NCBI GenBank assembly: GCA_049516875.1
Contig: JBEKSS010000001.1
Span: 352,001 to 416,000 of the forward strand
Direction of reading: 5' to 3'
DNA from: Candidatus Bathyarchaeia archaeon
GTDB lineage: Archaea; Thermoproteota; Bathyarchaeia; Bathyarchaeales; Bathycorpusculaceae
DNA: 64,000 bases
Shown here: piece after piece, positions 1,660 through 44,339 of the stretch
Layout of the letters: every line of letters begins with the position of its first letter
Position numbering within the stretch: the first letter of the stretch is position 1
The notes under the pieces: generated by a model
Databases searched by the model: none
What the model saw: only the letters and a program-made list of their open reading frames with translations
What the model was told of the DNA's origin: nothing
Translations under genes and position numbers: made by a program

Positions 1660-1697
1660 AGGCGCGCGTCAGGATGTAATGTGGGTCGGAAAAACAA

Positions 1698-2303
1698 ATG
1701 AGTTCAGTTAGTGATTGGCGGGTTACACCAAGAAGGAGTCGGAGTGAACTTCCGAAGGACATCACGCTTGACTTGAAAATAGATATTTTCCATGAACGCA
1801 TTGAGGGTTGGAAACTTGATATTGCAGACCAACTGATCAACGGCATCAAAGACGAAAAGGGTAACACAATAACAGAAGGCAATCCAAATGCGGGATATGC
1901 AGTTCTGGACATCATACTGAGCTACTTTGAAATGATCGCCAAGTATCAAGCTGGCTATCTAGGTATAAAGTCAAAACCGTACTTCAAAAAGGGAGTATGC
2001 ATGGTTTTCCCAGAATTGGAACGTGAAGACCCAAACTTGGTCGATATGCTGTTAGATACACTCTACTACGGTGCGCGCTGCGGGCTATATCATAACGGTC
2101 TTACTGACACTAGCATTTATCTGGAGGGCGGACGCCCACCAATAACTTTCCTGTCTGACGGGAAGGCGATTATAAATCCACATGAACTAGTTCTCGTAGT
2201 GAAGAGACACTTTGACAGTTACATAGAACAACTCAAAGACGTAAGAAATTTGGAACTAAGACAGAAATTTGAGAAAAGATTTGACGAAGATAATTCCCCG
2301 TAA
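1698..2303 (+). CDS. Hypothetical protein with HEPN-like RxxxxH motif
   Basis: 201-aa ORF, motif RCGLYH; lower GC than flanks. Confidence 0.6.
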   Translation: MSSVSDWRVTPRRSRSELPKDITLDLKIDIFHERIEGWKLDIADQLINGIKDEKGNTITEGNPNAGYAVLDIILSYFEMIAKYQAGYLGIKSKPYFKKGVCMVFPELEREDPNLVDMLLDTLYYGARCGLYHNGLTDTSIYLEGGRPPITFLSDGKAIINPHELVLVVKRHFDSYIEQLKDVRNLELRQKFEKRFDEDNSP

Positions 2304-2340
2304 GGTTTGGGTTTGGGAGTAAAGTTCTATCCAACCAACA
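2304..2340 (+). repeat. Hairpin repeat copy 1
   Basis: GGTTTGGGTTTGGGAGTAAAGTTCTATCCAACCAACA, starting right after the stop codon at 2303. Confidence 0.7.
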
Positions 2341-2400
2341 CCCAACCCGACCTAAAGAGACGAGGAAAAAAGAATGGAACTGACAGAAGATGAGGTGATT

Positions 2401-2715
2401 CTATTGGGCCTTTTTTAGCATTTCCAGAATTTCTTCGTTCTTGCTCACAATCTTTCTTTCCATTGTATTCCATGAGAGCCATGCCATCATGCATGGTTCC
2501 TTTTGGAGTTTTTGCATAGCGTCAAGACTCCCTTCGAACACCATGTATATTATGTGTTCTGGGAAGTCAGTCCATGAGCCAAGTAGCTTTATTCCCTGTT
2601 TCTTCGTCAGGCTGTCTATTGTAGATATGAATTCCAAAGTACTCTTCCGATGTTTCTCATGAAAAGCAGGGCAGTTGTCAGGAGTATGCCTACTTATATA
2701 CATGAATACTGGCAT
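2401..2715 (-). CDS. Small GYD/DUF3303-like protein
   Basis: 104 aa, HTPDNCP...GIKLLGSW..FPEH pattern; TATA-like TTTATAAA near 2738. Confidence 0.65.
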   Translation of the reverse strand: MPVFMYISRHTPDNCPAFHEKHRKSTLEFISTIDSLTKKQGIKLLGSWTDFPEHIIYMVFEGSLDAMQKLQKEPCMMAWLSWNTMERKIVSKNEEILEMLKKAQ

Positions 2716-2754
2716 AGTCCAACCTAATTCAGAATACTTTATAAATTTTATGGT

Positions 2755-2796
2755 GGGTTTGGGGTTTGGGGGTAAAGTTTTATCCCAGCCAACTTT
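2755..2796 (+). repeat. Hairpin repeat copy 2
   Basis: GGGTTTGGGGTTTGGGGGTAAAGTTTTATCCCAGCCAACTTT. Confidence 0.7.
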
Positions 2797-2864
2797 CGCA
2801 CCCGAGGATGCGGAGGTTCTATGCTACGTTTGAGACGGTGCGTTTGACGGATTGACTGTTTGCG

Positions 2865-5165
2865 TTACTGTGATGCCAATCTGATTTGTCTTTGTCCTTT
2901 GACTGCATCATAAATGGTTTTAACGGAGTAGCCGAAGGGACTGAGCATGTTGGCTGCTGATGTGTAGAGAAGAAGCAGGTACTTCTTGGTGTCCGAGTCC
3001 GTATTCTTCTCTATTAGCTCTTCTGCCAGAACTCTTCTTTCGTGACGTTTGTTTTTGGCGCTCGTGAAGAGGAACCTGACGTTCTTTCCTGCCGCAACCT
3101 CAGCTCCTTCTTTGATTAGTTGTTCGGCTGCGATGACTTGGCTGACCCGTTGCTTGTAGCTCTTCGGATCCTTCGACAAGTGTTTTGTTATTATCAGATC
3201 CCAGACTGAAACCTCGCCGTCCAGAAGCTTCTGCCTGTACTCTTTCAGCTCCTTCAAAGCGTCAGGAATCTTCTCGACAAATTCTTTCGAGTTTTTGGCC
3301 TCTGCAAGCACTTCCAACATTCTGGTCTGAGCACTGCACACAAATGGGGGAGTGTCTCTTCTTCTAACCTCCAGACCTCTTACCTTGATTTTGCCGCTCT
3401 CCATCACTCCGTAGTAACGGTTCAAAACACCCACGTTCGGATGCATTCTAGACGGAAGAAAAACAATCCAGTTATACCGACCCTCAAAACTCAGCGGAAT
3501 CCTCGTCTCCTCGCGTACCCGGCTGCACAATTCCTGATACTCCTCATCCGTTGCTCCTCTCTTCTTGAGCCAAAGCGAATCAACAATGCCGTGAACAATC
3601 CTGAATCCCTTTTCTTCGGCTATTCTTGACGCTCTCAGAAAGGCTTCTCTGCCGAAAGCGCAGACGCCTATGTGCCCGTCCACAGTGCCAAACCGTGCGT
3701 TTCTGTAGCCCAGGTAGCCGAAGCACGTGACGAGAATCCACTTCAGAGCCGTCTGCCGATTGTCGTAAACCTCCCTCAGCCTTTCATCCTCAGCCTCCGA
3801 CTTCAGCCTCTTGTAGAGCAGCCTCTTCGCGATCACGGGCTTCAGAGCCTTCGGAACGATTCCCACTTTTTTCTCGCAGATGTTGTAGCCCAGTTCTGGA
3901 ATGCGAAGCTTCGAGTCTGGACAGCACTTACACAGCACCGTTTCGGCAGAGATGTTGTTGTTAACCATCACCGTCGGGTACATAGAAGCAAAGTCAACCT
4001 CCCCAACATCGTCATGCACGCCCACCTCCGGCTCATAGACGAAGCCACCCTTATCCCCGACGAGCAGCTCAAAAGCAGACTTGAACGCCTCAGGAATACT
4101 CTTGTTCCTCGGAATCAACACGCCATCCTTCATAGCCTGATAAAACTGAATCGAAGACATGCTCGAACCTATCGACGAACGCGCAGCCGTGTGCAGCGAA
4201 ACCCTGCAAGTCCGCGCAATCTCAAACAACCCGTCCAGCCCACACTCGGCCAGGATAAACGTGTTCCTCTCGTCAACGTGAACCCTACCATACAAACGCC
4301 TCATCGGAGCCCTGTAAAAAGTGCGACCATAAGAGAAGAAAGTCCTTCCACGAACCTTCCTAGCAACAAGCGGCGTGCCTTCCCGACCCAAAACAAGCTT
4401 ATCCACAACCCCGTTAATCACCGCCCTCCGAACAAGGTAGACGAAAAGATACGAATCTCCACCCTTCGTAACAATAATATCTGGATCAAGCTCTTTAATC
4501 ACCTGCACGAATCGAAGCAACTTGTACTCCTCGTCGCCCGAATCGACGACTTCTCCGCCACCGCCTTGGCTCACCGTGATTCTGCTTACGGGATCGCTTG
4601 TCTTGGCAATCTTGCCCTGCTTGGCAACTTCCACGTCGATTCGCGAGATTCTCAAAGGCGGAATCGCGTAATCCACGCTTTCAGCCGAATCAAGCAGGCC
4701 ATACTTCAATCGGCCGCTCTCAGACTTGACGTCAACGAGCGCCAACGGAAAAACGTCACGATCGTAAAAGTACAGCTGCTCATGCTTCAAATCACAGTTA
4801 AAAACCTCGTACTGCAGGTACCTTCCAGACTTCAACACTCGACGAGTGAACGAAGACAGTCTTCTGCAGTCTTCGAGAACCACTTCGAGAACGTTGGACT
4901 CTTCGACGTCAGTTGCCTTCGCACGCCTTCGAACAAAATCCCAAGAAACAACCGCCCCGTCGTACGGAAGCTGAGCGGCAAGCCTCTCCAAGCCTTCCTC
5001 TTTTCCTGAAACGTAGATTGTGGGCTTGAAACTGTCCGTGAATCGCAGGCGTTCTCCGTTTTCACTTATAATCCAAACCGCAAACTCTCCCAGTTTGGAA
5101 GGGTATACGTCGAGTACCCAGCCCCTCACATGATCAGGGTTGAGCTGGCTTCTGTTTGACTGCAA
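2865..5165 (-). CDS. polB2: Family B DNA polymerase, PolB2 group
   Basis: DFASMYP (motif A), KWILVTCFGYLGY (B), HGIVDSLW (variant C), degenerate exonuclease domain, operon with iRadA and small ORF. Confidence 0.9.
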   Translation of the reverse strand: MQSNRSQLNPDHVRGWVLDVYPSKLGEFAVWIISENGERLRFTDSFKPTIYVSGKEEGLERLAAQLPYDGAVVSWDFVRRRAKATDVEESNVLEVVLEDCRRLSSFTRRVLKSGRYLQYEVFNCDLKHEQLYFYDRDVFPLALVDVKSESGRLKYGLLDSAESVDYAIPPLRISRIDVEVAKQGKIAKTSDPVSRITVSQGGGGEVVDSGDEEYKLLRFVQVIKELDPDIIVTKGGDSYLFVYLVRRAVINGVVDKLVLGREGTPLVARKVRGRTFFSYGRTFYRAPMRRLYGRVHVDERNTFILAECGLDGLFEIARTCRVSLHTAARSSIGSSMSSIQFYQAMKDGVLIPRNKSIPEAFKSAFELLVGDKGGFVYEPEVGVHDDVGEVDFASMYPTVMVNNNISAETVLCKCCPDSKLRIPELGYNICEKKVGIVPKALKPVIAKRLLYKRLKSEAEDERLREVYDNRQTALKWILVTCFGYLGYRNARFGTVDGHIGVCAFGREAFLRASRIAEEKGFRIVHGIVDSLWLKKRGATDEEYQELCSRVREETRIPLSFEGRYNWIVFLPSRMHPNVGVLNRYYGVMESGKIKVRGLEVRRRDTPPFVCSAQTRMLEVLAEAKNSKEFVEKIPDALKELKEYRQKLLDGEVSVWDLIITKHLSKDPKSYKQRVSQVIAAEQLIKEGAEVAAGKNVRFLFTSAKNKRHERRVLAEELIEKNTDSDTKKYLLLLYTSAANMLSPFGYSVKTIYDAVKGQRQIRLASQ

Positions 5166-5406
5166 CGAGTTCCTTCTCCAGACGCATTAGAGTCTTCTGC
5201 TGTTCCAGCAGGATGCACATGACCATCGACTCGAACACCTCGGGCCGCGTAGCGTTGCTTCCAGCCGAAGCGTGATTCCTGCACGCGTCAGTCATCCGTT
5301 CAAACGCCTCTCTGTCATCACTGCGCAAGGCCTTGGCAAACCCGTTCCAAGTCCGAATCTCCGTGTCTAAAGCAATCCGGTACGATTCAACCGTTTTCCC
5401 CATCAC
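5134..5406 (-). CDS. Small PolB2-associated protein (arCOG07300-like)
   Basis: MGKTVESYR...W.GF.KALR..DREAF; position between iRadA and polB2. Confidence 0.8.
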   Translation of the reverse strand: MMGKTVESYRIALDTEIRTWNGFAKALRSDDREAFERMTDACRNHASAGSNATRPEVFESMVMCILLEQQKTLMRLEKELVAVKQKPAQP

Positions 5407-6143
5407 ACACCACCTCTCACGAAATCGTCCAAAGTCAAATTCTCACATGGAAAATCAACACGTCCAAGCTTGAACAACGAATGCTTCTCGAGAGCAAACT
5501 GCTTGCCAAACGGGTACGTCCGCTTGTTCGTCACCGATATCGTGACGTTCGATCTTGCGCAAGCAACTGCGTGCAAGAAAGCACGGCGCCTAGAATAGGG
5601 GTGCGGCAAGCAAGTGGCAAGCACTATTGTGCCTTTCTTCTCGGCAAACTCGGAAACGTGAGCGCAGACCTGACTGAAAACCTCTCTGCTCTCGTCCGGC
5701 TTAATGTCCTTGTCGAGGTATAGTCCTTGAAAATCCGATATGATCACGAATTTCGCCTCATACTTGTCGATGGCTTCTTCGAGGCCGTCGAGGATTAGCG
5801 AAGTCATCTGGTGCATTGTGAACGCTCTTGAGATAAAGAATCGCTTAAGGATATCCTTCGGCCTGAGATGGTGCAGCCTAGCCAGCCGCGAAACCCTGTA
5901 CAGCCTGAACGTGTTTCCGCCGTCCACGAACACGACGCTTGATCCCAAGCCGCCCAACTGGCAGGGCAGACAAGCCCTAACAGCCAGAAGCGAAGACAAC
6001 GTCAAGACGTGTGGCAGGCCGTACATCACGGCGAAATCGCCCATCATGAACCCTGGGAACAGACTGTCTATGTTCTGCATGTTGAACGATAGCAAGGCTT
6101 GAGATGGAAGCGGCTTGATTAGGGTACTTTGCGCCAAAACCAT
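5403..6143 (-). CDS. Inactivated RadA-like protein
   Basis: RecA-fold segments VVFVDGGNTF and ISRAFTMHQ, no intact Walker A. Confidence 0.8.
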   Translation of the reverse strand: MVLAQSTLIKPLPSQALLSFNMQNIDSLFPGFMMGDFAVMYGLPHVLTLSSLLAVRACLPCQLGGLGSSVVFVDGGNTFRLYRVSRLARLHHLRPKDILKRFFISRAFTMHQMTSLILDGLEEAIDKYEAKFVIISDFQGLYLDKDIKPDESREVFSQVCAHVSEFAEKKGTIVLATCLPHPYSRRRAFLHAVACARSNVTISVTNKRTYPFGKQFALEKHSLFKLGRVDFPCENLTLDDFVRGGV

Positions 6144-6272
6144 TCACTTCCTCGAGTTAACAGGGATTAAGACACGGGCTTCCCTACACTTTTAACTGTT
6201 AGCCAGAAAAGTACGTCCATGAAAGGGGAGAGAGAAGAGTTAAAGTGAAGAAAGGCATGGAAAGCGCGCGCG

Positions 6273-6729
6273 GGAGACTCGTGGCGCTCGTGATTCTTTT
6301 AATGCGATGTTGAATTTTGGTTATCAGACGATTCTTTTTCCTGAGGTTTGGAAGGCTGTGAGCTATGCTGGGCTGGATTTCTATGCTGGATATTTACATG
6401 CTGATAGATCTGGAAAGCCTTCTCTTGTCTTGGATTTGATGGAGGAATTTCGCCAACAGCTTGTCGATCGGACCTTGGTGGGGCTGATCACAAGAAGCAT
6501 CATAAAACCTAACGAAATTTTGGCTACGGAAGCTGTTGAGGAAGGCCGAGTCTTGAGTAAGGATGTGGTTAAGGTTTTGTTGGCTAGTTTTCAGGAGCGT
6601 TTGGACAGTGAGGTGATGTTCAACGGTCAGAAAGGATCGTTGAAGAGCTTTATTTATTTGCAGGCACATTGTGTGGTGCGTTTTCTCTTGAAGGAAGCAG
6701 AGTATGTGCCCTTCTGTCTAGGATGGTAG
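6273..6729 (+). pseudogene. cas1: CRISPR Cas1 C-terminal fragment
   Basis: RGARDSFNAMLNFGY...GLDFYAGYLHADRSGKPSLVLDLMEEFRQQLVDR; homology starts at the GC run 6264-6272. Confidence 0.85.
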
Positions 6730-6779
6730 CTGTATGATAAAAAGAGAATTCTTTTTTTGTGTGTGCGGTTGTCAGGTGA

Positions 6780-7076
6780 TTGTTTTTGCGGTATGTTGTG
6801 ATTTATGATGTTTCGGATGATAATTTGCGGGCACTTGTTGCTGAGACGCTTAAGGATTATGGGTTGCAGCGGATTCAGTACAGTGGGTTCATGGGGGATC
6901 TTCGGCGGGATGAGTTGAACAGTTTGCTTGTGGACTTAAAGAATCTGATTAAGGATCTGGTTGAGAACGTTCTGCTTTTCTCTATGTGCGACAGTTGCTT
7001 GAAGGGAAAAAAAGAGGTAGGCAAGCCGAAGAAGTACCAGTTCAAGGAGGAGAAAGACAAGATTGCGTATTTTTAA
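6780..7076 (+). CDS. cas2: CRISPR-associated Cas2
   Basis: YVVIYDVSDD..R..VAETLKDYGLQRIQYSGF. Confidence 0.92.
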   Translation: MFLRYVVIYDVSDDNLRALVAETLKDYGLQRIQYSGFMGDLRRDELNSLLVDLKNLIKDLVENVLLFSMCDSCLKGKKEVGKPKKYQFKEEKDKIAYF

Positions 7077-7148
7077 TGGTGTATTGCTTGACAGTCGGTG
7101 CAAAACGTTTATGTATGCATTTGGTATCTATTGTATACGGTGGTTGTG

Positions 7149-7469
7149 TTGACGCTTAAGCCTTTGGCTGTAAGAGTGCCTGCAGAAGTGGAAAAAGAAA
7201 TTCGCGAAATCATTGAAGAAGAAAAGCTCGATAAAGCAACAGTAGTGAGGAACCTTCTTGAAATCGGCATAGCGGAATGGCGCAAGCAGACCGCGCTGGA
7301 ACTCTTGCAGAAAGGTAAAGTGACCTTTGCGAAGGCGGCCGAGACTGCAAGACTCTCTTTATGGGAGTTTGCTGACTTGGTGAAGCAGCGCAACGTCGAG
7401 TGGGTCCGCTACACGCCTGAAGAAGTTGAACGGGAGTTTAGTGAAGCGTCGGCGGCGAAGTGCAAGTGA
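7149..7469 (+). CDS. UPF0175 family predicted antitoxin
   Basis: ALELLQKGKVTFAKAAETARLSLWEF HTH with RHH-like N-terminus; start approximate. Confidence 0.8.
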   Translation: MTLKPLAVRVPAEVEKEIREIIEEEKLDKATVVRNLLEIGIAEWRKQTALELLQKGKVTFAKAAETARLSLWEFADLVKQRNVEWVRYTPEEVEREFSEASAAKCK

Positions 7470-7978
7470 AACCGCCAGTTTTCAATTCGACGCCCCTGAT
7501 TTACTTAACGAAGGCTGGGCTCAGCAGGGTTTTTGAGGGGTTGCAGGGTGAAAAGTTGACGTCGCCAGTTGTTAAGAGAGAGGTTGTTGATGAAGGCAAG
7601 CGCAGAGGCATTCCTGATGCGATTGTTTTGGATACGCTGTTTGTGAATGGAGTTTTCAAAGTTTGCGAACCTATGGATAAGAAGTTTTTGGCGAGGTTGT
7701 TGGAGACGCATGGGCTTCACTTGGCGGATGCTGAGGTTTTAACTATCGCTCGTGAACGTTCAGGAATCGCGGTGATTGATGATGAGGTGGCGAGGAAGAC
7801 TGCGAAGGTTTATGGTGTTGATTATGTTGGTTCGCCTTATGTTTTGATGCAGGCTGTCTGTGAAGGGCTTATTTCGAAAGCGAAGGCTAAGCAAGCTGTT
7901 AATGACATGGTTTCTGCGGGTTGGCATTGTAGCGTGGAGAGCTACGCGAAGATTATGGAAGCCTTAGAGAAACTGTAA
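7460..7978 (+). CDS. DUF3368 PIN-domain predicted toxin
   Basis: VFNSTPLIYL, V..EV, LHLADAEVL..A, IDD..AR..A; overlaps the antitoxin. Confidence 0.82.
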   Translation: MQVKPPVFNSTPLIYLTKAGLSRVFEGLQGEKLTSPVVKREVVDEGKRRGIPDAIVLDTLFVNGVFKVCEPMDKKFLARLLETHGLHLADAEVLTIARERSGIAVIDDEVARKTAKVYGVDYVGSPYVLMQAVCEGLISKAKAKQAVNDMVSAGWHCSVESYAKIMEALEKL

Positions 7979-7990
7979 GGGTTTTAAACG

Positions 7991-8480
7991 TTGGGCAAGT
8001 TTAGGGATGAATGGTTGAAGCGGCAACAGCGGTTGCCTGTTTCAGATATTGCTGAGTCTTTTGTCTCTGTTACTGATATCAAGCATTACGTTTATTGTCC
8101 CCGGTTGGTTTATTTTGATAGAGTTTTGCATGCGGCGCCAGTTTTTGGTTCTCAGCAAGAGGATAGTAAAGAATTGCATGAAGATTATGTTGCTAAAGAG
8201 CTCAGGAGAAAAGACGCAGTCTACTATTCGCCTGAGTTTGTTGGTGCCGAGAAGTTTTTGTTTACAACGTTGAGTTCTGGTGAGTTGGGGTTGCAGGGTA
8301 ACGTTGACTGCATAATCAAAACCGCGAAGGGCGAGTTTGTTCCTGTGGAGTACAAGAACATGAGCTCTGACGATGGCCCAGTTTGCATGGACCACAAGTA
8401 CCAACTCGTCGCCTACGCCTTGCTCATCGAAGAGAATTTTGGTACAATCGTTAAGCAGGGGTTTGTGAATTACATTATGG
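7991..8480 (+). pseudogene. cas4: Cas4, C-terminally truncated
   Basis: YVYCPR, G.VD, PVEYK, QLVAYALL present; C-terminal three-Cys Fe-S motif missing; frame runs on into unrelated sequence to 8623. Confidence 0.82.
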
Positions 8481-8543
8481 ACTCACAACACGATAGAGGA
8501 CAATACGACTGCGCGCGCTCGAGTCGCGGGGTGAGTCGCTCAG

Positions 8544-9221
8544 ATGAGGACAGAGATTTTTCCTTTTTCTCTTGGGTTCAACGACTGCTACATAATTCGA
8601 GAACAAGGCGTGATAATGATTGACGGTGGACCACCTAATAAGAAAATGGATTTAATCAAAGCGATGAAGGAAATCTCATTGAACCCTGAGAACATCAAGT
8701 TGATTGTCATAACTGATGGGCATCCAGACCACATTGGCTCTGCCAGAGACATCAAAGAACCCACAAAGGCGAAGATTGCAATGCACCGACTGGCAAAGGA
8801 TTGTCTTGAAACTGGAGAATGGAAAAAGATGCATACGCCTGGAGGGTGGATAGGCAGAAAAATGCTCGGTCGAGTTGTCACATGGTTTTATGGCGAGATT
8901 CCATCCGCTGAAGTTGAACTAGTTGTCGAAGATGATGGTCTGTCTTTGAAGGAGTATGGAATTTCTGGAAGAATTGTCTACACTCCTGGGCATACCATGG
9001 GTTCAGTTAGCGTGCTATTGGATTCTGGAGAGGCTTTTGTGGGAGACCTTGCAATGAACAAGCTTCCATTCAGGCTTGGCCCAGGGCTACCCACCGTTGC
9101 TGAAGACAGCGGTAAAGTCAAAGAAAGCTGGAGGAAATTACTGGAACTTGGGGCAACAACAGTCTATCCCGCACACGGAAAACCGTTCTCGGCCGAAGTA
9201 ATCAAGAAGGCTCTGAAGTGA
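8544..9221 (+). CDS. MBL-fold metallo-hydrolase
   Basis: TDGHPDHIG (first His replaced by Asp), TPGHTMGS, VGD, YPAHG. Confidence 0.85.
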   Translation: MRTEIFPFSLGFNDCYIIREQGVIMIDGGPPNKKMDLIKAMKEISLNPENIKLIVITDGHPDHIGSARDIKEPTKAKIAMHRLAKDCLETGEWKKMHTPGGWIGRKMLGRVVTWFYGEIPSAEVELVVEDDGLSLKEYGISGRIVYTPGHTMGSVSVLLDSGEAFVGDLAMNKLPFRLGPGLPTVAEDSGKVKESWRKLLELGATTVYPAHGKPFSAEVIKKALK

Positions 9222-9304
9222 TACATTAAAAGCATAAGCGCGCGCTGCGCATGTCTCGGTAAAATCAAGAACGCGCGAAGGAAGATTGCGTACGAGCGAG
9301 ATTT

Positions 9305-11365: not shown

Positions 11366-11565
11366 CTATTTCACGATAACATATGCTTAGAGCTGTCAAC
11401 TTATACTTTGTTGGCATAGCGTGCTAGGTTGTCGCGCGCGCTTTCTTGGAGTTTTGTCCAAGTCGCCAAAAGAGATATTGAGCAAATACATTAGGGCTTA
11501 TCTTGAGTGAGTGAAATTCTGCAACAAGTTTTATCTTTCGTGGTTGGTTTGTTTAATGGGGCGTT

Positions 11566-18960: not shown

Positions 18961-19299
18961 GAGCGCGCGCTTCTTTGCGCGCGCGATAGAACTTGTCTCT
19001 GCTGAGATGGTTTCTTAATCCTTCAAATCCCCGTTTCAGGAGCTTCGAGTCGTTCTTTGTCACATTGAAGCGCGCGCAGCATCTCTATTTGCTTTCAACT
19101 GGCGAAGTTGGGGGCGCTGTGGGAAGGCTGCGTGGGGGGGAGTAGCAAAAATGTTTGCAGCCTTCGCTTGCGCTCTTTCTCCCTTCTCCAATACTATTAC
19201 GAGTGCAAGGTGAAAAAGCTTTTCTCAAAGAGAAGCTGCAGTTTTGTATAGATTGATTCAAACACTTGGTGAAAGTCAACAAAGAGTGCGCGTTTGGCG

Positions 19300-22096: not shown

Positions 22097-22101
22097 GACG
22101 A

Positions 22102-30061: not shown

Positions 30062-30175
30062 AATTCTGTATCCGACGGCTTTTTGGATAGTCATGGCAAC
30101 TCCCTCTTCCGAGTCTCAGCGCCCTAATCTTGTATCTGCAAATTCCTTCACGCACGCCTTGATTTGCGCGCGCGC

Positions 30176-33143: not shown

Positions 33144-33161
33144 GTTTCCTCCTCCGCTCTT

Positions 33162-33465: not shown

Positions 33466-33504
33466 TAGTGCGCGCGCGATGGGTTAAATGTTACTCGAGT
33501 AACT

Positions 33505-34104: not shown

Positions 34105-34215
34105 TGTTTGGTCTTTTCGCAGAACTCTTCATAGTCTGCGAATTCTTCATCAGCGTGATGAATCTAGCAAGCAGAACACGAAAGCTGGAATCCCTCAATT
34201 CCATAGAGTAGCGCG

Positions 34216-35109
34216 CTAGACAAGGAAGATTATGAAGACTCCTGCAACAATCATTATTGAACCCATGACATTCTTGACGTTGACCTTTTCATGCAAGAGT
34301 AGGATGCCTGCCAAGGTTGAAAAAAGGGGTGTAGCTGATGATATTGGAACAGCCCGAGATTGCAAGGTGTCTATGAAGCTAATGGACAGGAGAAACCAGC
34401 CCAGCCCAAGCGCCACAATTCCACCAGCAATCAGCGTGACCACTGTTCTTCTTCGCATTTTCAGAAAACCCAAACCCCTGTCCACAATGGGAGCAGAGAT
34501 CGCGAAGGAAACCGCGATTGTCAAAATTCTTATCGTGTTGATGGCGAACGCATCGCCTAAGTTCGGTGTTTCCTTCACAGCCAGACCCATCATCGCTATA
34601 CTCACAGACCACAACAAAGCTGTTGCAAGAGCCACAGCCAAGCCTCTGCCCAAGACCTTTTTCTGCGCATCCAACGTGTCTTTTTCTCCTTCTAGGCTCA
34701 AAAGCCATATTCCTAAGACTATGACAACAGCTCCAAGAGCCACAGACCACGTGATGGGTTCGCCTGCTAAAAGGGCAACCCACAGAAGATTGAAAAGCGG
34801 ATAGGTGCACGTCACCGGGACGGCCCGGGTGACGCCAATCATTTTCAGACTGATCATGTACAAAGTGTCGCCCAAACCTAAGCCGATAATGCCGCTGACA
34901 CCGGCAAGAACAACGACATTTGTGGGCAGACTAGCTAAGACTCCAAGCATGCCGGTGGCAACCAAAAAGGCAAGTAGAACAGCGCTGGTCAGCGTTAAGC
35001 GAACGATGTTAGCCGAAACAGGTTTAGTCTCTGATAATGCCTTTCTGTAGAGCAGGGCCGACACCGTCCAACTGATAGCCGCTCCTAGAGCTGCAAATTC
35101 GCCTATCAT
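34216..35109 (-). CDS. EamA/DMT transporter
   Basis: About 10 TM helices, two EamA repeats. Confidence 0.88.
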   Translation of the reverse strand: MIGEFAALGAAISWTVSALLYRKALSETKPVSANIVRLTLTSAVLLAFLVATGMLGVLASLPTNVVVLAGVSGIIGLGLGDTLYMISLKMIGVTRAVPVTCTYPLFNLLWVALLAGEPITWSVALGAVVIVLGIWLLSLEGEKDTLDAQKKVLGRGLAVALATALLWSVSIAMMGLAVKETPNLGDAFAINTIRILTIAVSFAISAPIVDRGLGFLKMRRRTVVTLIAGGIVALGLGWFLLSISFIDTLQSRAVPISSATPLFSTLAGILLLHEKVNVKNVMGSIMIVAGVFIIFLV

Positions 35110-36327: not shown

Positions 36328-36423
36328 GCTTGCACACTCAGTGTGTGAGTACCTACTTCACGGTTTATAAGGTTTAACTCTTAAATCTAGTGTGCAAAAC
36401 ACACCGAACCAGCCGGTGACACG

Positions 36424-36972: not shown

Positions 36973-37080
36973 AAGAAGAGCTTTCAACTGAGGATCTGAG
37001 AACCACCTGAAGTTGCTGAGAGCGTTGCGAAATCAAAAGAGTTTTTAGCGCTACACACGAGTAGAAAGAGGTGTTTAAAC

Positions 37081-37875: not shown

Positions 37876-37905
37876 GTCTTTGTGCTCGGGTTGACCAACT
37901 GGAGT

Positions 37906-38562
37906 CTAACCTGTTCTTTTTTGTGCGAGAATGACGTATCCTCTCACCCAGTTCCTATGATAATAGCTTGTAAAAGTGTCTTCTTCAAAGTGGATTACAT
38001 GGAAGTTCTTCAGAAGATCGAGTATTTCTTTACGGGTGAAGTGATGACCGAAATGGAGAATCCTTCCAGTTTCATCCTTCACCGCGATTGTGCCTGACTC
38101 GCCTGTGACTCTTGCATCGATTCTGTACCTTTTTGCGTAAACAGGGTTTTTCCATGTTCGAGCAAACTCTTCAACGAAGATGTAACCATGCTTTTTGAGA
38201 ATCCTATACACCTCGTTGAGTATTCTGGGTCTCTCAGACTTTGAAACTAGAGTGAGGACGCCCAGCATCGTGGCCGCATCGAAGGAAGAATCAGGGAAGC
38301 ACAGGTTTCTGGCATCGTTGAGTAGGAAGTCTATTTCTCCGTTAACGCCTCGCGGTTTTGACCCCTCTTGCGCTATTCCTATCTGAGTCCTATCAACGTC
38401 GACGCCGACAACGTTGAAACAATTTTCGTGAAGGAAGAAACAGGTCCTTCCATAACCACAACCGACTTCCAAAACTTTCTTTGCTGAACCGTCTTTGATT
38501 ACATTGACAAGCCTTGTGGGCAAGGGAATGGTGTAAAGCTTCCTTTCGCCGCAAGATTTCAT
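37906..38562 (-). CDS. Class I SAM methyltransferase
   Basis: VLEVGCGYGR, FPDSSFD. Confidence 0.88.
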   Translation of the reverse strand: MKSCGERKLYTIPLPTRLVNVIKDGSAKKVLEVGCGYGRTCFFLHENCFNVVGVDVDRTQIGIAQEGSKPRGVNGEIDFLLNDARNLCFPDSSFDAATMLGVLTLVSKSERPRILNEVYRILKKHGYIFVEEFARTWKNPVYAKRYRIDARVTGESGTIAVKDETGRILHFGHHFTRKEILDLLKNFHVIHFEEDTFTSYYHRNWVRGYVILAQKRTG

Positions 38563-38711
38563 CTTCCACGTCTTTCCCAAAGCTCTTTCTTCAGCAAATC
38601 CCTCACTGAAGACCTGATTGCCGAACTCCTGCTTGGATACATGTTCGCTCTAACAAGCTCATCCAAACCTTCCAAATAAGCTTCGGGCAACAACACCGTT
38701 ACAAGTTTCAA
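38559..38711 (-). CDS. CopG/RHH regulator
   Basis: KLVTVLLPEAYLEGLDELV...YPSRSSAIR..VRDLL. Confidence 0.88.
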   Translation of the reverse strand: MKLVTVLLPEAYLEGLDELVRANMYPSRSSAIRSSVRDLLKKELWERRGR

Positions 38712-38873
38712 CCTGCTTCCCCCTAAACATGTTATGCATATAACATGCACCAAATATAAGATTTGACCCAAAACTCAAAGGTCATTCTTCAAGCGCGCGC
38801 AGTTGAAACCATGCCGTTGAGCGGCAAATGCGCAAATCATAAAAAAGAAATCAACTAACAGTCTACAAAGGTT

Positions 38874-40085
38874 GTGATATCAGTGGAATCTTTCTCCCCG
38901 AAGACATTTGTCGAGACCGCAATCGCAAGGATGAAGCGGAACATCGGCAATGAGAAGGCGTTGGTAGCTGTTTCTGGAGGGGTAGACAGCACGACATGCG
39001 CCGTGTTGACGCACAAAGCGGTTGGTGAAAATCTTGTTTGTGTGATTTTGGACGATGCTTTCATGCGACTAGGTGAACCGGAGCATGTTGCCGAAACGCT
39101 GTCAAAATCGCCATTCAATGTGCCTGTGAAAATAGTCAATGTTCGCGACCGTTTCATGCAGGCGATGAAGGGACTGAGGGACGCTGAAGAAAAACGCAAA
39201 GCGTTCCGCGAGACCTTCTATAAGGTTTTGAGCGAAACAGCCAAGAACGAAGGCTGCAAAATCCTAGTCCAAGGCACCATACGCGCCGACGTAATCGAAA
39301 CTGTAGGAGGCGTGAAAACTCAGCACAACGTTTTGGAACAGATGGGCATAAACCCGTTGCAAAAGTTTGGCTTCAAAGTTGTTGAACCCCTGCTGCCGCT
39401 GTTCAAAGAACAGGTCAGGATAGTTGCAAGGCATTTAGGGCTGCCGACAGAGTTTTCCGAACGGCAACCTTTTCCAGGGCCAGGCTTGTCAGTTCGGGTG
39501 GTAGGAGAAATTCGTCCAGACAAACTGGAAATCCTGAAGACGGCCACAACCATGGTTGAACACGAGCTTGCGGTTCACAAGCCCGGACAGTATTTTGCAG
39601 TGATCGTCGACAACGAAGAAGCCCCGCAGACTTCAAGGGCCCTGCATGTTCAAGAGACCGTTGCACATCTTCTCAACGTCCCATCGAGAAACGTTCACGT
39701 CAAAGTCTTCGCGGACAGGGCTACTGGCGTTGAGGGTGGCAAGAGGCGTTACGGTGAGGTAGTCGGCATAAAAGTTCAGACAATGGATGGTAGGCTTCAT
39801 CAAACGGGCATTCAGAACCTTGTTTCAGTTCAGGCAAGGATAATCACTGAAAACCCGCCGGTAGCAAGAGTTTTCTACGCAGTGAAAGATTCAGGTCAAA
39901 AAAAGCCCTATGTCATAGGCATAAGGTCTGTGCAGACAAAAGACTTTTTGACGGCGGAAGTTTCGGAGATACCTTGGACAACGTTGGACAAGATTGGGGA
40001 AGAAATCGTTGAACAATGCGCGGACGTGTCAACGGTCTACTATGATGTTACTCCCAAGCCGCCTGCAACAATCGAAATGGAATAG
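38874..40085 (+). CDS. guaAB: GMP synthase ATP-pyrophosphatase subunit B
   Basis: SGGVDS, VKTQHNV, RQPFPGPGL, YDVTPKPPATIE. Confidence 0.92.
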   Translation: MISVESFSPKTFVETAIARMKRNIGNEKALVAVSGGVDSTTCAVLTHKAVGENLVCVILDDAFMRLGEPEHVAETLSKSPFNVPVKIVNVRDRFMQAMKGLRDAEEKRKAFRETFYKVLSETAKNEGCKILVQGTIRADVIETVGGVKTQHNVLEQMGINPLQKFGFKVVEPLLPLFKEQVRIVARHLGLPTEFSERQPFPGPGLSVRVVGEIRPDKLEILKTATTMVEHELAVHKPGQYFAVIVDNEEAPQTSRALHVQETVAHLLNVPSRNVHVKVFADRATGVEGGKRRYGEVVGIKVQTMDGRLHQTGIQNLVSVQARIITENPPVARVFYAVKDSGQKKPYVIGIRSVQTKDFLTAEVSEIPWTTLDKIGEEIVEQCADVSTVYYDVTPKPPATIEME

Positions 40086-40138
40086 CCCACGCTAGAAAGG
40101 TATAAAACCTCTTGGACATTCTACAGTGATGAAAAGCC

Positions 40139-40465
40139 ATGTTCCGCGTAAGAGTGAACAAGATAGAATCCATACGAGACATTGACGGCAACCTTGGAAA
40201 ACGCATAGAACTGATTGAAGACAGGGAAATACCGAAATTCGTGGTTAGACCGCAAACCGAAGAGGCCAAGATGGTGCAAGACGTGATGCAGGCTTTACAA
40301 CAGCAGCTGCCGATGTTCCCCATGAGAACGGACGTAACGATCCCAAAAATAATCCTGTTCTTGACCGAGCAAGAGTGCGAGAGCCTGGGAATCGAGTTCG
40401 ACGTGAACCAAATCTACGAAATAGCTCTTGAAAGCCAGACATTGAAGTTCATGAAAACTGCATAA
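40139..40465 (+). CDS. Arcadin-1-like protein
   Basis: Resembles crenarchaeal arcadin-1 as recalled: IELIEDRE...QQLP...PKIILFLTEQE.E.LG..FDV...EI. Confidence 0.7.
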   Translation: MFRVRVNKIESIRDIDGNLGKRIELIEDREIPKFVVRPQTEEAKMVQDVMQALQQQLPMFPMRTDVTIPKIILFLTEQECESLGIEFDVNQIYEIALESQTLKFMKTA

Positions 40466-40778
40466 TCTCTTTTCTAACTTGCCTCAAGGCTTGATGTTTT
40501 GGATGGAAAGACAGAACAAACATCATGTTCCTTAAGGTCATGTAGACTTCTTCCATGTTGGATTGACCGTTGTTGCTGCAGTATATCGGGATAGGCTCTT
40601 CGTCGCCTGTCTTGTAGTAAACATAGATCGGCGTGAAACTCTTTCTGAAAGTCTTGATTTCAAAGCTCAGCTTCAAGAGCCTGGCCATCTTCTCAGCAGC
40701 TATGCTGACAGGCTTCAATCTCTTTTGGCTGAAAGAAGAAGCGTAGACAAACAGTTTTCCGCTGGAACATTCTAGCAT
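40449..40778 (-). CDS. Hypothetical protein
   Basis: 109-aa ORF with plausible composition. Confidence 0.65.
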   Translation of the reverse strand: MLECSSGKLFVYASSFSQKRLKPVSIAAEKMARLLKLSFEIKTFRKSFTPIYVYYKTGDEEPIPIYCSNNGQSNMEEVYMTLRNMMFVLSFHPKHQALRQVRKEIMQFS

Positions 40779-40883
40779 GTTCGACGCCCACGAATCAACG
40801 CGGCGCGAACTGCATTTAAGACAGGTGTTGCAGCAACACGTTTACGCGGTGGAGAGAGATAGGTAAAAGTGAATGCTTGAGCG

Positions 40884-41168
40884 GTGAATCCATTGAAAGT
40901 CAGAGTGCATGTTTTCGTAAGCGGCAGGGTTCAGGGAGTGTTTTTCAGATCTGAAGCCATGCATGATGCAAGAAAACGCGGCGTAACGGGTTGGGTTCGC
41001 AACCTGCCAGATGACAGGGTTGAGGCTGTTTTTGAGGGGGAAGAAGAAAACGTGCAGAAGCTTTTGGAATTCTGTAGGCGAGGGCCGCCCGGAGCCAAGG
41101 TCACAGATACAGACGTGACCTTGGAAAGCTATTCTGGAGAGTTCAGAGACTTTGAAATAAGATATTAG
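40884..41168 (+). CDS. acyP: Acylphosphatase
   Basis: SGRVQGVFFR, GWVRNLPD.RVE. Confidence 0.95.
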   Translation: MNPLKVRVHVFVSGRVQGVFFRSEAMHDARKRGVTGWVRNLPDDRVEAVFEGEEENVQKLLEFCRRGPPGAKVTDTDVTLESYSGEFRDFEIRY

Positions 41169-41200
41169 AAGAGAAATTCATGCTTGGAAAGTCGCTACGC

Positions 41201-41623
41201 TCAGGTTCTTTTCTTTGGCACTCTGAAGTGTGAGGCTTTTCCAGCGCTTACGTAGTCTCCTCCAGCACCGCGTACAACTGAAGCGATTTTTGAGAAGTTG
41301 TCTGAACCTAGAAACTGCCGCGGTTTTATCATGATGTAGTCCTCTTTCTCCTCAAAGCTCAGCAGGTTCTCCAAGTCTTCTGGAAACATCATCTTCACGT
41401 CCTCTATCACTTTTGATTTTTCTTGAGGCTGGGGCGCTCCTGCTACGGGCTGAGACAATGCCGGTGCTGGATGCGCTGCTATTGGCTGAGTAATCTGTGA
41501 GACAGCCAGAGATTTCAAAGATGCTGAAACCTGCCGCAAATCCTCCATGATGCCGTTCATTATCAGAACAAGTTCGTCGACTCTCTTGGTCAGAGCTTCG
41601 ATTTTTTCTTTATCCGCGCTCAT
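41201..41623 (-). CDS. Hypothetical coiled-coil protein
   Basis: N-terminal heptads, Pro-rich linker, globular C-domain. Confidence 0.7.
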   Translation of the reverse strand: MSADKEKIEALTKRVDELVLIMNGIMEDLRQVSASLKSLAVSQITQPIAAHPAPALSQPVAGAPQPQEKSKVIEDVKMMFPEDLENLLSFEEKEDYIMIKPRQFLGSDNFSKIASVVRGAGGDYVSAGKASHFRVPKKRT

Positions 41624-41706
41624 ATGCCTTCTTCCTTACAAATCCCTAATACTTAACGCATTTATTAATGGTTTTTGACTCTTCCAGCAATTCGGATAGC
41701 GCGCGC

Positions 41707-42062
41707 TATCTTTCTTCATGCCGCGCTTAATCATTTTCTCTATAGGCAATGCAAGTGTATTTTTGAAAAAACCGATTTTGGCATCAACATTATATTTCCC
41801 ACTTTCACTCAACAAATTCCCTTCTGTAGGCTTGCACTTGTTTGTCTTCACTGACAGCCTGCCCTACGCACTTCAATATCCAACCTGTGAAGGACAGTGT
41901 CTCACCTGTTTTCTCTTTGTAACTGCGCATGTACTCGCGAGCTTTAGTTACGTCAAGTTCAATCAACCCATAAACACGATTCTTCACAGCGGCATTGTCA
42001 AGGAACTCATTGCCCCATCCGCGATTTTTCCTTATTTCTTGATAAGTTCCTATCTGGTCCAA
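41707..42062 (-). pseudogene. 2-oxoacid dehydrogenase E2-like acyltransferase N-terminal fragment
   Basis: GLIELDVTKAR...GETLSFTGWILKCVGQAV; frameshifted, ends at the GC run 41699-41706. Confidence 0.65.
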
Positions 42063-42169
42063 TATTTATGCCGGCTTAAGCGTGTCTGACAATAATAATC
42101 GAGAGTGATGGTAAAAGAATTTTCGCCCGAACTTGCTTTGAACGTACAAGCACTACTGAGACCACGTTA

Positions 42170-43138
42170 TTAGAGCAAGAATTTGCCAAGAAGAAGAATT
42201 ATGGACATGATGCTGTAGGTTTGGGTAACCAGCATTATCCACTGGGGATTGTGCGCAGACAAGCTCACAATATCCTCAGCCACATAGCTTTGACCGTTTG
42301 AGGACACGTATTCTTTGGAAAGAAAGTAGAGCTTCTTGAATTTTCCCAGAACGAACAGGACGACAACTGGTATGGCGAGCAGGAAAACGCTCAACCATGC
42401 GTGCTGGTCATAGGTCCACTCAAGAAGGAAGGCTGCCCCTGTGAGTACGGCGCCGGCTGCAAGCAGTACGATGCCGAGGAACGAAGCCCTAACAAGTCCC
42501 AGCCGCACCGTCATCGTCTCGATGTTCATCGCTTTGTCTCCGAAGTAGTCTCGGATCTCGGTAGGTATTATCACGCCATAGACTGTCGAGGCGAGCCCTG
42601 CAAGGGAAAGGAGAAAGAAACGGTTGATTCCAGAAGCAAAAGTATGGTACGCAAACATCACTGGAAACACAGCTAAGACTAGAATAAGCGTGACCGGCGC
42701 CACCCAAGACCTAGACTTCAACCGCAAAGGTGGGGCAGAGTAGGCATATCCCAAAGAAATCCCAGCTACCCACATCAGGAGCAGGATAGGCTTTTCTTGG
42801 ATAAACATAAACAGAGAAACAAGAACCAGGGCAAAAACAAACTCGGCAACCAACAATGCTTTCAGCCGTTTTTGTCCCAAAGAATCCAGAGCGTGGACCA
42901 GCTGCCTCTTGCGGTCGTCCTTCAGGTCTAGTTCATAATCAGAAAGGGTGTTTGCCTGTGCTCCGATAGCAGAACTGAGGTTTATTATGGCGAAAGAGAG
43001 AACCACCAAGATTACTCCGTTGATCAAACTTAGAGGCGGACTGGCGCCCCAAGCAAGTCCCATGATAAGCGAACCTAAATTCGGGAGGAGAAACTCCGCC
43101 CTGGAAACGGTGGCAAGCAATTTCACGCTTTCAAACAT
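42170..43138 (-). CDS. UbiA family prenyltransferase
   Basis: N..SDYELD, YSAPPLRLK, EIRDYFGD. Confidence 0.85.
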   Translation of the reverse strand: MFESVKLLATVSRAEFLLPNLGSLIMGLAWGASPPLSLINGVILVVLSFAIINLSSAIGAQANTLSDYELDLKDDRKRQLVHALDSLGQKRLKALLVAEFVFALVLVSLFMFIQEKPILLLMWVAGISLGYAYSAPPLRLKSRSWVAPVTLILVLAVFPVMFAYHTFASGINRFFLLSLAGLASTVYGVIIPTEIRDYFGDKAMNIETMTVRLGLVRASFLGIVLLAAGAVLTGAAFLLEWTYDQHAWLSVFLLAIPVVVLFVLGKFKKLYFLSKEYVSSNGQSYVAEDIVSLSAHNPQWIMLVTQTYSIMSIILLLGKFLL

Positions 43139-43275
43139 TCTTGTCCCAACGCCTAACAAAGGGGGCCACAGTCAAAAACGTACTTTCAAAGCTTGCATTA
43201 TAATTACCTTTTGTATGCATTTATTAATGGTTCTTGACTCTTCTGGTAACCTGAAGAACTGGGTGCGCGCCACGC

Positions 43276-44313
43276 TTGATCGAGATTGACGGAAGCGAAA
43301 AAAGTGGAAGCGGCACGATTCTGAGGATGGCCGTCGCCCTATGCGCGATAATTGGGCAGCCGTTGCACATCTACAACATCAGAGAGAACCGTCCGCAGCC
43401 AGGTTTGAAGCCTCAGCATTTGGAAGCTGTTCTGACAGCCGCTAAGCTCTGTGACGCCGAACTGGAAGGTGCGAAAGTCGATTCACGGGAGCTTTGGTTC
43501 AGGCCTAAAGAAGTAAAAGGCGGCAAGGTCGAAGCTGAAATCGGCACTGCCGGAAGCATCTCAATGCTTCTCATGACAGTGCTCCCCATGTGCGCCTATG
43601 CCAAGAACGCTGTGCACCTGCACATTTCCAAAGGCGGAACGGATGTTACCCATTCGCCGACCATCAATTATATGCGCTTCGTCCTTTTGCCGACACTTCA
43701 ACGCATGGGACTGAACGCTGTTCTGACCGTTCACAAGTACGGCTACTATCCCAAAGGAAATGGCGAGGTGACAATAGATGTGACACCTTGCAAGTCCCTG
43801 AAAGCTTTGAGCCTAGAGACTTTTGGCAACGCCAAAGCGATAAAGGGAGTCTCAGTCTGCACATTCCTTGCTGACAGAAAAGTTGCTGAACGCCAAGCAA
43901 GAGCGGCGAACGAGTACCTGGGCGAAAGAGGCTACAAGGCTAACATCCAGATAATAAATGACACCTCGAACCCACTACAAAAGGGCAGTTCCATCGTCTT
44001 GTGGGCCGAGTCTGACACCAACGCTATTCTAGGAGCAGACGCTATCGGCGAACTGAGAAAAACAAGCGAAACAGTTGGAACCGAAGCAGCCGAGAAACTC
44101 CATGCAGAAATCATTGACAAACCCACGGTTGACGCCCACCTAGCTGACCTGCTTGTTCCATACGTAGCCCTGGCCCACGGCAAGTCAACTTATCTTACGC
44201 GGTCTCTTACCGAACATTCGCAGACAAACATCTGGCTTGCCAAAAAAATATTGAATGTAAAGTTTGTTCTTGAAAAGAAAGATGGACTATACAAGCTGGA
44301 GAAAGTTGGTTGA
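43276..44313 (+). CDS. rtcA: RNA 3'-terminal phosphate cyclase
   Basis: IDGS..SGSG.ILR, PGLKPQH, GGTDV, GYYPKG.G, VDAHLAD. Confidence 0.95.
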   Translation: MIEIDGSEKSGSGTILRMAVALCAIIGQPLHIYNIRENRPQPGLKPQHLEAVLTAAKLCDAELEGAKVDSRELWFRPKEVKGGKVEAEIGTAGSISMLLMTVLPMCAYAKNAVHLHISKGGTDVTHSPTINYMRFVLLPTLQRMGLNAVLTVHKYGYYPKGNGEVTIDVTPCKSLKALSLETFGNAKAIKGVSVCTFLADRKVAERQARAANEYLGERGYKANIQIINDTSNPLQKGSSIVLWAESDTNAILGADAIGELRKTSETVGTEAAEKLHAEIIDKPTVDAHLADLLVPYVALAHGKSTYLTRSLTEHSQTNIWLAKKILNVKFVLEKKDGLYKLEKVG

Positions 44314-44339
44314 ATTATGGCAATCGGCTTAGCGCGCGC

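Follow-up and report, generated by a model that had tools for sequence, protein, structure and literature searches.

Short alternating tracts of G and C, above all the palindromic octamer GCGCGCGC, are spread through the genome of an uncultured Bathyarchaeia archaeon in numbers far above chance, and they lie mostly outside genes, are concentrated in DNA that cannot be aligned with close relatives, turn over fast and are enriched at the boundaries of homology. At two polarised deletions, the sequence at the junction is new. These tracts, called GC runs here, were followed up from a 64,000-nt stretch (the window), which is positions 352001 to 416000 of contig C1 of a metagenome-assembled genome (MAG). 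The GC-run feature is real. As to its origin, the account that fits best is that the runs are filler written at repaired breaks, which then decays neutrally; we hold it tentatively, at somewhat short of an even chance. The original prediction, made from the letters of the window, was that GC runs mark gene-fragment breakpoints and module junctions, and that a palindrome-centred recombination or end-joining process, loosely analogous to HIP1 of cyanobacteria, shapes gene gain and loss. The observation was confirmed and extended to the genome and to the order, and the interpretation was partly supported.

A run was defined as a maximal alternating G/C tract, and a long run as one of 8 nt or more. 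The window contains 12 long runs of 8 to 10 nt, each at the position first reported for it. The ten shorter runs named in the original prediction also exist (6 to 7 nt), and further 6-nt runs were found at 2073, 9272, 15163, 15642, 32981, 33326 and 36604. Chance expectation was obtained from an order-3 Markov model with 300 simulations of 64 kb, which gave a mean of 1.17 long runs, close to the earlier rough estimate of about one per window, and a maximum of 5. The 12 runs observed are thus far beyond chance. No run of at least 6 nt occurs in the window beyond 44339, so that the 45-64 kb block, including the conserved part at 52-64 kb described before as lacking long runs, is free of them. The source genome, designated G000 (2.43 Mb in 20 contigs), contains 416 long runs, a strong excess over the Markov background, with a mean of 10.4 per 64-kb window. 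Because 34% of its 29 windows hold 12 or more long runs, the window studied here is typical, not special. The octamer GCGCGCGC is the top over-represented 8-mer of this genome, with 447 sites against about 31 expected at order 3.

The runs have a defined word and phase. Among maximal 8-nt runs of the source genome, GCGCGCGC was found 212 times and CGCGCGCG 28 times, and among 10-nt runs (GC)5 and (CG)5 were found 48 and 8 times, respectively. Run counts by length from 6 to 12 nt were 503, 204, 240, 112, 56, 5 and 1. The phase bias and these non-smooth length counts rule against microsatellite slippage or a generic Z-DNA tract as the origin, and the plain Z-DNA or slippage mechanism proposed earlier also leaves the flank preference unexplained. 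When dinucleotide repeats and palindromic tetranucleotide repeats in non-coding DNA were compared, only (GC)4 (22-fold) and (GATC)2 (about 10-fold) stood out, while (AT)4 was 1.2-fold. The base at position -1 is A in 72% of the runs and the base at +1 is T in 64%. TA is the commonest flanking dinucleotide (left side of 85 and right side of 78 of 261 runs), yet TA is strongly depleted, with an observed/expected ratio of 0.585 both genome-wide and in the window. No flank sequence is common to the runs beyond about 2 nt, and therefore they are not a dispersed repeat element. The two flanks are mutually independent, and the extension of the palindrome into them equals the expectation from shuffled, independent half-sites. 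An origin from hairpins or fold-back was rejected on this ground.

Genes in the source genome were called with a self-trained finder based on open reading frames (ORFs) and codon usage, which is crude (2,318 genes, 80% of the genome). By these calls, 80 of the 416 long runs lie inside genes and 324 in spacers, and 81% are outside called genes, while spacers make up only 19% of the bases. The density of runs is flat, at 0.74 to 0.85 per kb, across spacers of 51 to 800 bp, and the numbers in convergent, divergent and tandem spacers are proportional to the bases in each. A mild excess was seen 10 to 40 nt after stop codons and a depletion in the 40 nt before starts. A promoter or terminator signal was considered and dropped, since the flat density over spacer types and lengths rules against a positioned element.

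All five genomes of the genus (the source genome and its congeners G001 to G004) contain between 168 and 646 GCGCGCGC sites and agree in a two-fold excess of the word over its reverse. Elsewhere in the family, 13 of 14 other genera have 0 to 30 sites. A wider survey covered 301 genomes of the order using the flanked 10-mer AGCGCGCGCT, with the reversed word as the control and 10 or more sites as the threshold for a motif-rich genome. Thirty genomes were motif-rich, and the trait is patchy across the order. Counts of the 10-mer also differ within single genera: 53 in one genome of genus g11 versus 1 to 3 in others, 92 versus 7 to 9 in g38, 104, 21, 10 and 3 in g46, and 121, 91 and 4 in g78, which belongs to another family. 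With such differences among close relatives, comparative genomics should be able to locate the genetic determinant of the trait, whose expression in a model host would then serve as a test.

The dispersal, the intergenic location and the patchiness across lineages, together with the preference for TA on both sides in spite of TA depletion, would also be expected if the runs were traces of a tiny mobile element, either excision footprints of a TA-targeting transposon or a REP-like element with a dedicated transposase. We regard this as very improbable. The runs have no sequence in common beyond the flank of about 2 nt, their palindromes extend only as independent half-sites would, and their births are not simple insertions at TA. 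The Y1/RAYT transposase family (PF01797) had no match in the source genome. None of 50 multi-copy gene families tested beside runs was tied to them, the best raw p values being 0.003 and 0.007 and none being significant after correction.

For the comparison with relatives we used contig C1 of G004, contig C5 of G002, most of G002:C4 and pieces of G001 and G003. Aligned blocks of the source genome and the congeners are about 76 to 88% identical. In non-coding DNA of the source genome, the parts aligned with G002 or G004 contained 3 runs in 40.0 kb and the unaligned parts 20 runs in 23.6 kb (0.075 versus 0.85 per kb, p = 1e-6). The same contrast was obtained from the congeners, where the aligned and unaligned non-coding densities per kb were 0.15 and 1.26 for G004:C1, 0.08 and 0.55 for G002:C5, and 0.19 and 1.37 for G002:C4. 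Run density is therefore 6 to 11 times higher in unalignable than in alignable non-coding DNA in three genomes. One of the highest densities, 1.26 per kb of unaligned non-coding DNA, was observed in the distal half of the 387-kb G004 contig (G004:C1:205000-387461), which is almost without a G002 counterpart and represents either a very large accessory region or a binning difference.

The runs are also enriched at the edges of homology, which were defined by BLAST. Between 126 adjacent collinear block pairs, 14 of the 59 runs in gaps of at least 100 bp were within 20 bp of a gap edge, compared with 4 to 7% for random positions. This first control was biased by gene interiors, and a second one was restricted to non-coding positions. 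With unique gaps of the source genome and non-coding placement, 6 of 21 runs were within 20 bp of a boundary against 7.6% expected, an about four-fold enrichment (p = 0.004) in a small sample. Short gaps resembling empty sites gave four run records in 1,078 bp, two of which are one locus of the source genome seen from both G002 and G004, and hence three distinct runs.

At the level of individual sites, 7 of the 12 long runs in the window are at junctions (truncations, insertion edges or synteny breaks), 4 are inside variable DNA and 1 is a collinear rewrite. The long runs, two shorter runs and the features that they delimit are as follows.

1249..9256: 8-kb island, specific to G000 and absent from G004, which holds three long runs.
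6264..6272: GCGCGCGCG run (9 nt) where a C-terminal fragment of Cas1 (ORF 6307-6729) is truncated at its 5' end.
8511..8518: GCGCGCGC run; Cas4-like homology ends 17 nt before it, and the MBL gene starts 26 nt after it.
8544-9221: MBL gene, lying between the runs at 8511 and 9238.
9238..9245: GCGCGCGC run, 11 bp inside the right edge of the 8-kb island.
11433..11441: CGCGCGCGC run (9 nt), 16 nt past the end of a block with 92.7% identity to G004; synteny jumps beyond this block.
18963..18970: GCGCGCGC run in gene-free DNA within 16544-25094, a region unaligned with G002 and G004.
18977..18985: GCGCGCGCG run (9 nt), 6 nt after the run at 18963..18970.
19070..19077: GCGCGCGC run in the unaligned gene-free stretch within 16544-25094.
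30166..30175: (GC)5 run (10 nt) where an N-terminal fragment of GH38 (ORF 30116-30709, minus strand) is truncated at its 3' end.
33470..33478: GCGCGCGCG run (9 nt) inside a 1.8-kb segment, 32412-34214, that is absent from G002 and G003.
34211..34216: GCGCGC run at the exact right junction of the 1.8-kb segment, where …GTAGCGCGC meets TAGACAAGG.
38793..38800: GCGCGCGC run without a breakpoint, in a divergent spacer that is collinear and aligns well.
41699..41706: GCGCGCGC run at the left junction of a 1.5-kb insertion, 41695-43216, with a UbiA-family gene.
43265..43270: new GCGCGC run; at this place G001 reads GCGGAGAT and the other three congeners GCGAACCT.
44332..44339: GCGCGCGC run where homology to all four congeners ends.

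The GH38 junction is exact to the base. The fragment corresponds to profile positions 2-173 of 270, the intact gene of G003 encodes 868 aa, and DNA homology to that gene begins at 30179, directly after GCGCGCGCGC-TAA, in agreement with the earlier statement that the GH38 fragment ends at a run. At the break point the intact G003 gene reads GGGCGAG followed by GATGG, with no run. The second polarised deletion is in G001, where a methyltransferase gene retained by the other four genomes has been lost; the 26-bp junction ends in ACGCGCGCGC, and the source genome has no run at either endpoint. A related case is C1:424033-424073 of the source genome, a 40-bp gap with a run where G002 and G004 have about 551 bp. 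The 1.5-kb UbiA-family segment occurs only in the source genome and is absent from G001 to G004. It is flanked by a direct duplication of about 39 bp (41656-41694 and 43217-43256), and GATAGCGCGCGCTATC at its left junction, at 41699, is a 16-bp palindrome. The duplicated stretch is the TATA-like promoter region upstream of an RNA 3'-phosphate cyclase gene, so that the UbiA-family gene and the cyclase gene each keep a copy. At the GH38 truncation, the G001 methyltransferase deletion and the UbiA-family insertion alike, the junction bases have no counterpart in the unrearranged allele.

The Cas1 fragment covers profile positions 191-283 of 283, and in frame its Cas1-like residues start directly after the run at 6264, as had been proposed; homology of G003 to the left flank of this run stops at about 6249. 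The Cas4/PD-(D/E)XK match in ORF 7991-8623 covers profile positions 2-112 of 160 and ends at residue 168. Between the runs at 8511 and 9238, the bracketing of the MBL gene described in the original prediction was found as stated. The empty site of the 8-kb island in G004 also has a run at the matching place (CAA-CGCGCGCGC-TAAAATC). Around 11433, the block 9257-11417 corresponds to G004:C1 102243-104403, and the next block, 11523-11927, to 84324-84730. The empty sites of the 1.8-kb segment in G002 and G003 are 21 to 23 bp. The runs at 18963, 18977, 19070 and 33470 lie within DNA specific to the source genome, away from its edges. At 44332, two contigs from other populations (X8 record 32 and X13 record 8) match the window only up to 44331. 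Some gene assignments made earlier were not confirmed: the 10 stop-to-stop frames at 18652-19525, where "E2-like" and "ABC" fragments had been named, matched no Pfam family at E up to 0.1, and the supposed methyltransferase fragment (gene 37906-38580) looks full length, with its start 213 nt from the run at 38793.

The 8-kb island encodes a PolB paralogue of the third type (2865-5165, minus strand), a RadB/Rad51-like protein, the Cas1 fragment, Cas2 (6780-7076), a DUF3368 protein, the Cas4-like fragment and the MBL-fold protein, and resembles a CRISPR adaptation module in decay, next to a polymerase. The island showed no terminal inverted repeats. Integron-like cassette sites were considered and rejected, because a run bounds the edge of only 3 of 42 clean insertion loci (15 in the source genome and 27 in congeners) and the MBL gene bracketed at 8511/9238 is a single case. 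Within the 1.8-kb segment, independent contigs from three sequencing runs stop at about 32617-32633 and resume at about 33081-33093, with a higher depth between, and 32634-33092 is therefore probably multi-copy. Separately, the window contains at about 28640-28720 a dispersed repeat of which the genome has 38 oriented copies. Its core, conserved over about 70 nt, surrounds TTGAGTACTCAA, and it has a second, small inverted repeat; contigs from metagenomes accumulate and end at this place. The repeat shows no association with GC runs (4 of 38 copies within 200 bp) and could represent a small RNA or else a miniature mobile element. Searches of the window for Rfam families and tRNAs found none.

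Several of these sites could be read in the opposite direction, namely, in line with an alternative offered in the original prediction, that the runs come first and cause the breakpoints, as fragile or recombinogenic tracts (through Z-DNA, a site-specific nuclease, or cutting and re-ligation) at which deletions and insertions start. The run already present in the empty site of G004, the divergence of two other populations exactly at 44331/44332 and the three distinct runs in short empty-site gaps fit this view; the boundary enrichment is compatible with it, and it could even cycle with the writing of scars. However, the intact GH38 allele and the endpoints of the G001 deletion in the source genome have no run, which argues that the run came with the repair. 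For the same reason, microhomology joining of pre-existing runs, one of the mechanisms suggested at first, fails for these two deletions. Fragility also leaves unexplained the origin of more than 400 runs and the 212 to 28 phase bias, and at 39 of the 42 clean insertion loci neither edge has a run within 20 bp. We therefore think it unlikely that the runs are causes of the breaks.

Since the source genome is a MAG (20 contigs, contamination estimated at 5.4%), the junctions might be products of assembly, binning or amplification. Where the window has contig cover, the support from independent data could be judged. The stretch 36000-45000 is partly present in 20 public sequencing runs from 15 studies, and the sites at 30166, 34211, 38793 and 41699-43265 are bridged by contigs from other studies with 0 to 16 differences; the insertion at 41699 is bridged by the independent contigs X8 record 31 and X4 record 14. 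In addition, each of the five independent genus assemblies is rich in this word and shows its phase bias, 30 of the 301 genomes surveyed in the order are rich in AGCGCGCGCT when compared with the reversed word, and G002 and G004 have runs in common at orthologous places. These results effectively refute an assembly artefact, which is excluded for practical purposes, and they speak against the chimeras that the original prediction had named as a possible undoing.

The runs are not maintained at their sites. At about 84% identity between the source genome and congeners, none of 22 aligned observations was a conserved run; these are observations, not unique sites, and 38793 is counted three times. 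The closest pair, G002 and G004, is 93.6% identical over 133 kb and has 4 of 13 runs in common and 9 not, a comparison that could not be extended because of the distal half of G004:C1. Among the differences at run sites were single substitutions, patches of 4 to 10 bp that had been rewritten, and a clean insertion of 10 bp in G002, which splits GAAG from CTTC. In non-coding DNA, the excess of variants one base off is about 330 and that of the perfect word about 290, with transitions the most enriched. The two excesses are about equal, roughly as predicted if the words are made perfect and then decay neutrally, although the one-off figure is a rough estimate because the runs themselves inflate the Markov expectation.

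The enrichment of one-off variants has another possible source. In analogy to the highly iterated palindromes (HIPs) of cyanobacteria, a bias of modification or repair, or selection for a protein-binding word, could turn near-matches into GCGCGCGC, and the link to junctions would then be secondary, since DNA at junctions is young and unconstrained. About half of the observed births are substitution-only, as such a process would produce them. The word is a palindromic 8-mer and the top over-represented one, it is lineage-specific and patchy in the way of the alternate HIPs, and it has an extended flank consensus as reported for HIP1 (PMC4390886). To this extent, the analogy with HIP1 drawn at the outset was borne out: the runs are a lineage-specific, over-represented palindrome. 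On the other hand, run sites are not conserved, whereas HIP1 sites are described as conserved (PMC13756078), and genes are almost free of runs. A ratchet that changes one base at a time would not produce clean insertions of 4 to 10 bp, nor the filler seen where deletions were joined. C5 methyltransferase (PF00145) was above the cut-off in none of the five genus genomes, Vsr was not found in the source genome, and N4/N6 methyltransferases (PF01555) are present in 28 of 31 genomes and are not specific to the genus. A HIP-like origin is accordingly improbable in our view.

The repair-scar account, which we prefer, would begin with a break at the site of each run, and the run would be synthesised at the broken ends, neither copied nor selected. 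A simple re-joining may leave a rewritten patch of a few bases, a joining after loss of DNA may leave a run at a deletion or gene-truncation junction, and the capture of other DNA may leave a run at the edge of the insertion. If tails beginning with G were made on each 3' end and paired with each other, the G-first, C-last, even-length phase could follow. Such insertions would be tolerated only in non-coding, unconstrained DNA, so that runs accumulate there, and after writing they would not be maintained and would mutate away. Filler of this kind would explain the new sequence at the polarised deletions, the insertion edges, the small collinear deletion-insertions, the location in tolerant DNA and the lack of conservation. 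With respect to the end-joining process proposed in the original prediction, this part fits best if the run is added as filler. A bolder and doubtful extension is that some Bathyarchaeia possess a transferable system for suturing DNA ends, in which self-complementary (GC)n tails could pair any two ends in a sequence-defined end joining that would leave a scar at every repaired break, and would both drive and record gene loss, truncation and capture.

A number of observations weigh against the repair-scar account. Since about half of the observed births are substitution-only, a model of biased repair or selection explains them equally well. Unalignable DNA is also the least constrained DNA, and the enrichment there shows by itself no link to breaks. 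Fifteen of the 21 non-coding gap runs (about 70%) are more than 20 bp from any detectable boundary, and a run lies within 20 bp of the edge in only 3 of the 42 clean insertion loci. Thus, the claim that runs mark breakpoints stands for the four-fold enrichment at boundaries and for 7 of 12 long runs in the window, but not for most runs or most insertions. The run at 38793 is a replacement of about 10 bp in collinear DNA with conserved flanks on both sides, where G002 reads GAAACAGCAC, G003 GAAAGAGCAC and G004 CAAGATTGAG. The preference for A/T (TA) flanks is left unexplained. The search for candidate enzymes gave none that accounts for the filler, no polymerase is known to write a defined alternating GC filler, and literature searches gave none. 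Finally, Ku does not determine the trait. It is missing from the motif-rich genomes G206 (104 sites, 100% completeness) and G244 (63 sites, 98% completeness), no Ku was found in the congeners G001 (168 sites) and G003 (253 sites), and in genus g29, where 53 of 69 genomes have Ku, there are 0 to 14 sites each.

The source genome has one complete end-joining operon (C9:90883-93943, minus strand) encoding a LigD-type Prim-Pol of 285 aa, Ku of 269 aa and an ATP-dependent ligase-3'-phosphoesterase of 466 aa; a DUF72 gene adjoins it. For the bacterial LigD polymerase domain, terminal-transferase activity is reported (PMC8656161). Ku was detected in 91 of the 301 genomes of the order, mostly in two genera, and in 16 of 30 motif-rich versus 75 of the remaining 271 genomes (odds ratio 3.0; p = 0.006 without correction for kinship). 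Given the mismatches described above, Ku-LigD is neither necessary nor sufficient for the trait. Among other candidates, reverse transcriptase was detected in none of 31 genomes, and Prim-Pol PF09250 was not found in the source genome. The palm of family-X polymerases was also not found there, in a weak search whose control was below the cut-off in all 14 control genomes. The PolB paralogue of the 8-kb island was excluded as the determinant, because orthologues with 57 to 63% identity occur in motif-poor genomes, and motif-rich G106 has only paralogues of about 27%.

We also considered a fill-in model, in which a cut with a 5' overhang at R^GCGCY or ^GATC is filled and blunt-joined so that the overhang is duplicated. 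AGCGCT appeared depleted in non-coding DNA (0.57), but this was because the runs had inflated the expectation; after the runs were masked, 206 sites were observed against 202 to 256 expected. The observed births of runs do not start from GCGC-containing ancestors, and the model was rejected for (GC)n. For (GATC)n the model may still apply. Non-coding DNA is about 10-fold enriched for tandem (GATC)n runs, whichever of the four phases is counted; a cluster of them lies at G000:C2:78000-90500, and some copies adjoin GC runs. Even so, no 4-mer palindrome is avoided as much as GATC itself, at 0.60 in non-coding DNA and 0.66 in coding DNA.

Should the repair-scar account hold, the runs would be a natural archive of the places and the frequency of chromosome breakage and rejoining in an uncultured lineage of archaea, and would point to an end-joining chemistry with a defined filler, a description of which was not found in the literature searched. 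If they are instead HIP-like, they would be the first archaeal case as far as our searches show, and their non-conserved sites would constrain theories of how such palindromes originate. For work with these MAGs, the runs are a practical flag of variable DNA and of pseudogene edges. No published description of an archaeal GC-run phenomenon was found in the searchable literature, which leaves out most subscription journals, and supplementary tables such as those of Elhai might list non-cyanobacterial palindromes.

The closest described phenomena are the cyanobacterial HIPs and the filler DNA at end-joining junctions. HIP1 is GCGATCGC, and alternate HIPs are also known; where such a word is frequent, a cognate DNA methyltransferase is reported to be present (Elhai 2015, PMC4390886). 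HIP1 sites are evolutionarily conserved and a role as an uptake signal has been proposed, as stated by Rodriguez-Cruz et al. 2026 (PMC13756078). The GC runs are like HIP1 in being a GC-rich palindromic octamer that is the top word of its genome, lineage-specific and patchy, with extended flanks and an unexplained origin. They differ from it in their fast turnover, in that 81% are outside genes and concentrated in unalignable DNA, in their appearance as multi-base insertions at junctions, and in that no cognate C5 methyltransferase or Vsr was found. At end-joining junctions, filler is known from the N-additions of TdT and Pol mu and from the templated insertions of Pol theta. The GC runs share with it the extra bases exactly at deletion and insertion junctions, without a parental counterpart, and the source genome has a Ku-LigD operon; dependence on an end-joining system, a trait of this class, was not found for Ku-LigD, the one system tested. 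Known filler is variable or copied from nearby, whereas the GC runs are one defined self-complementary word with preferred flanks.

Three further systems are comparable in part. REP, BIME and REPIN elements are about 20 to 40 bp long, with conserved imperfect stems and RAYT transposases. Like REPs, the GC runs are short, intergenic, palindromic, dispersed and variable in number among strains, but they are 6 to 10 bp long with no conserved flank, and no Y1/RAYT is present in the source genome. The DNA uptake sequences of Neisseria and Pasteurellaceae are enriched in the core genome and stable; the GC word resembles them as a short, genus-specific word over-represented by an order of magnitude, whereas the runs are unstable and enriched in accessory or unalignable DNA. 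The GC clusters of yeast mitochondria are mobile elements of 30 to 50 bp with class-specific sequences. The GC runs are similar to these clusters as GC-rich palindromic non-coding insertions at rearrangement and deletion junctions, and are distinguished from them as bare alternating tracts of 6 to 10 bp.

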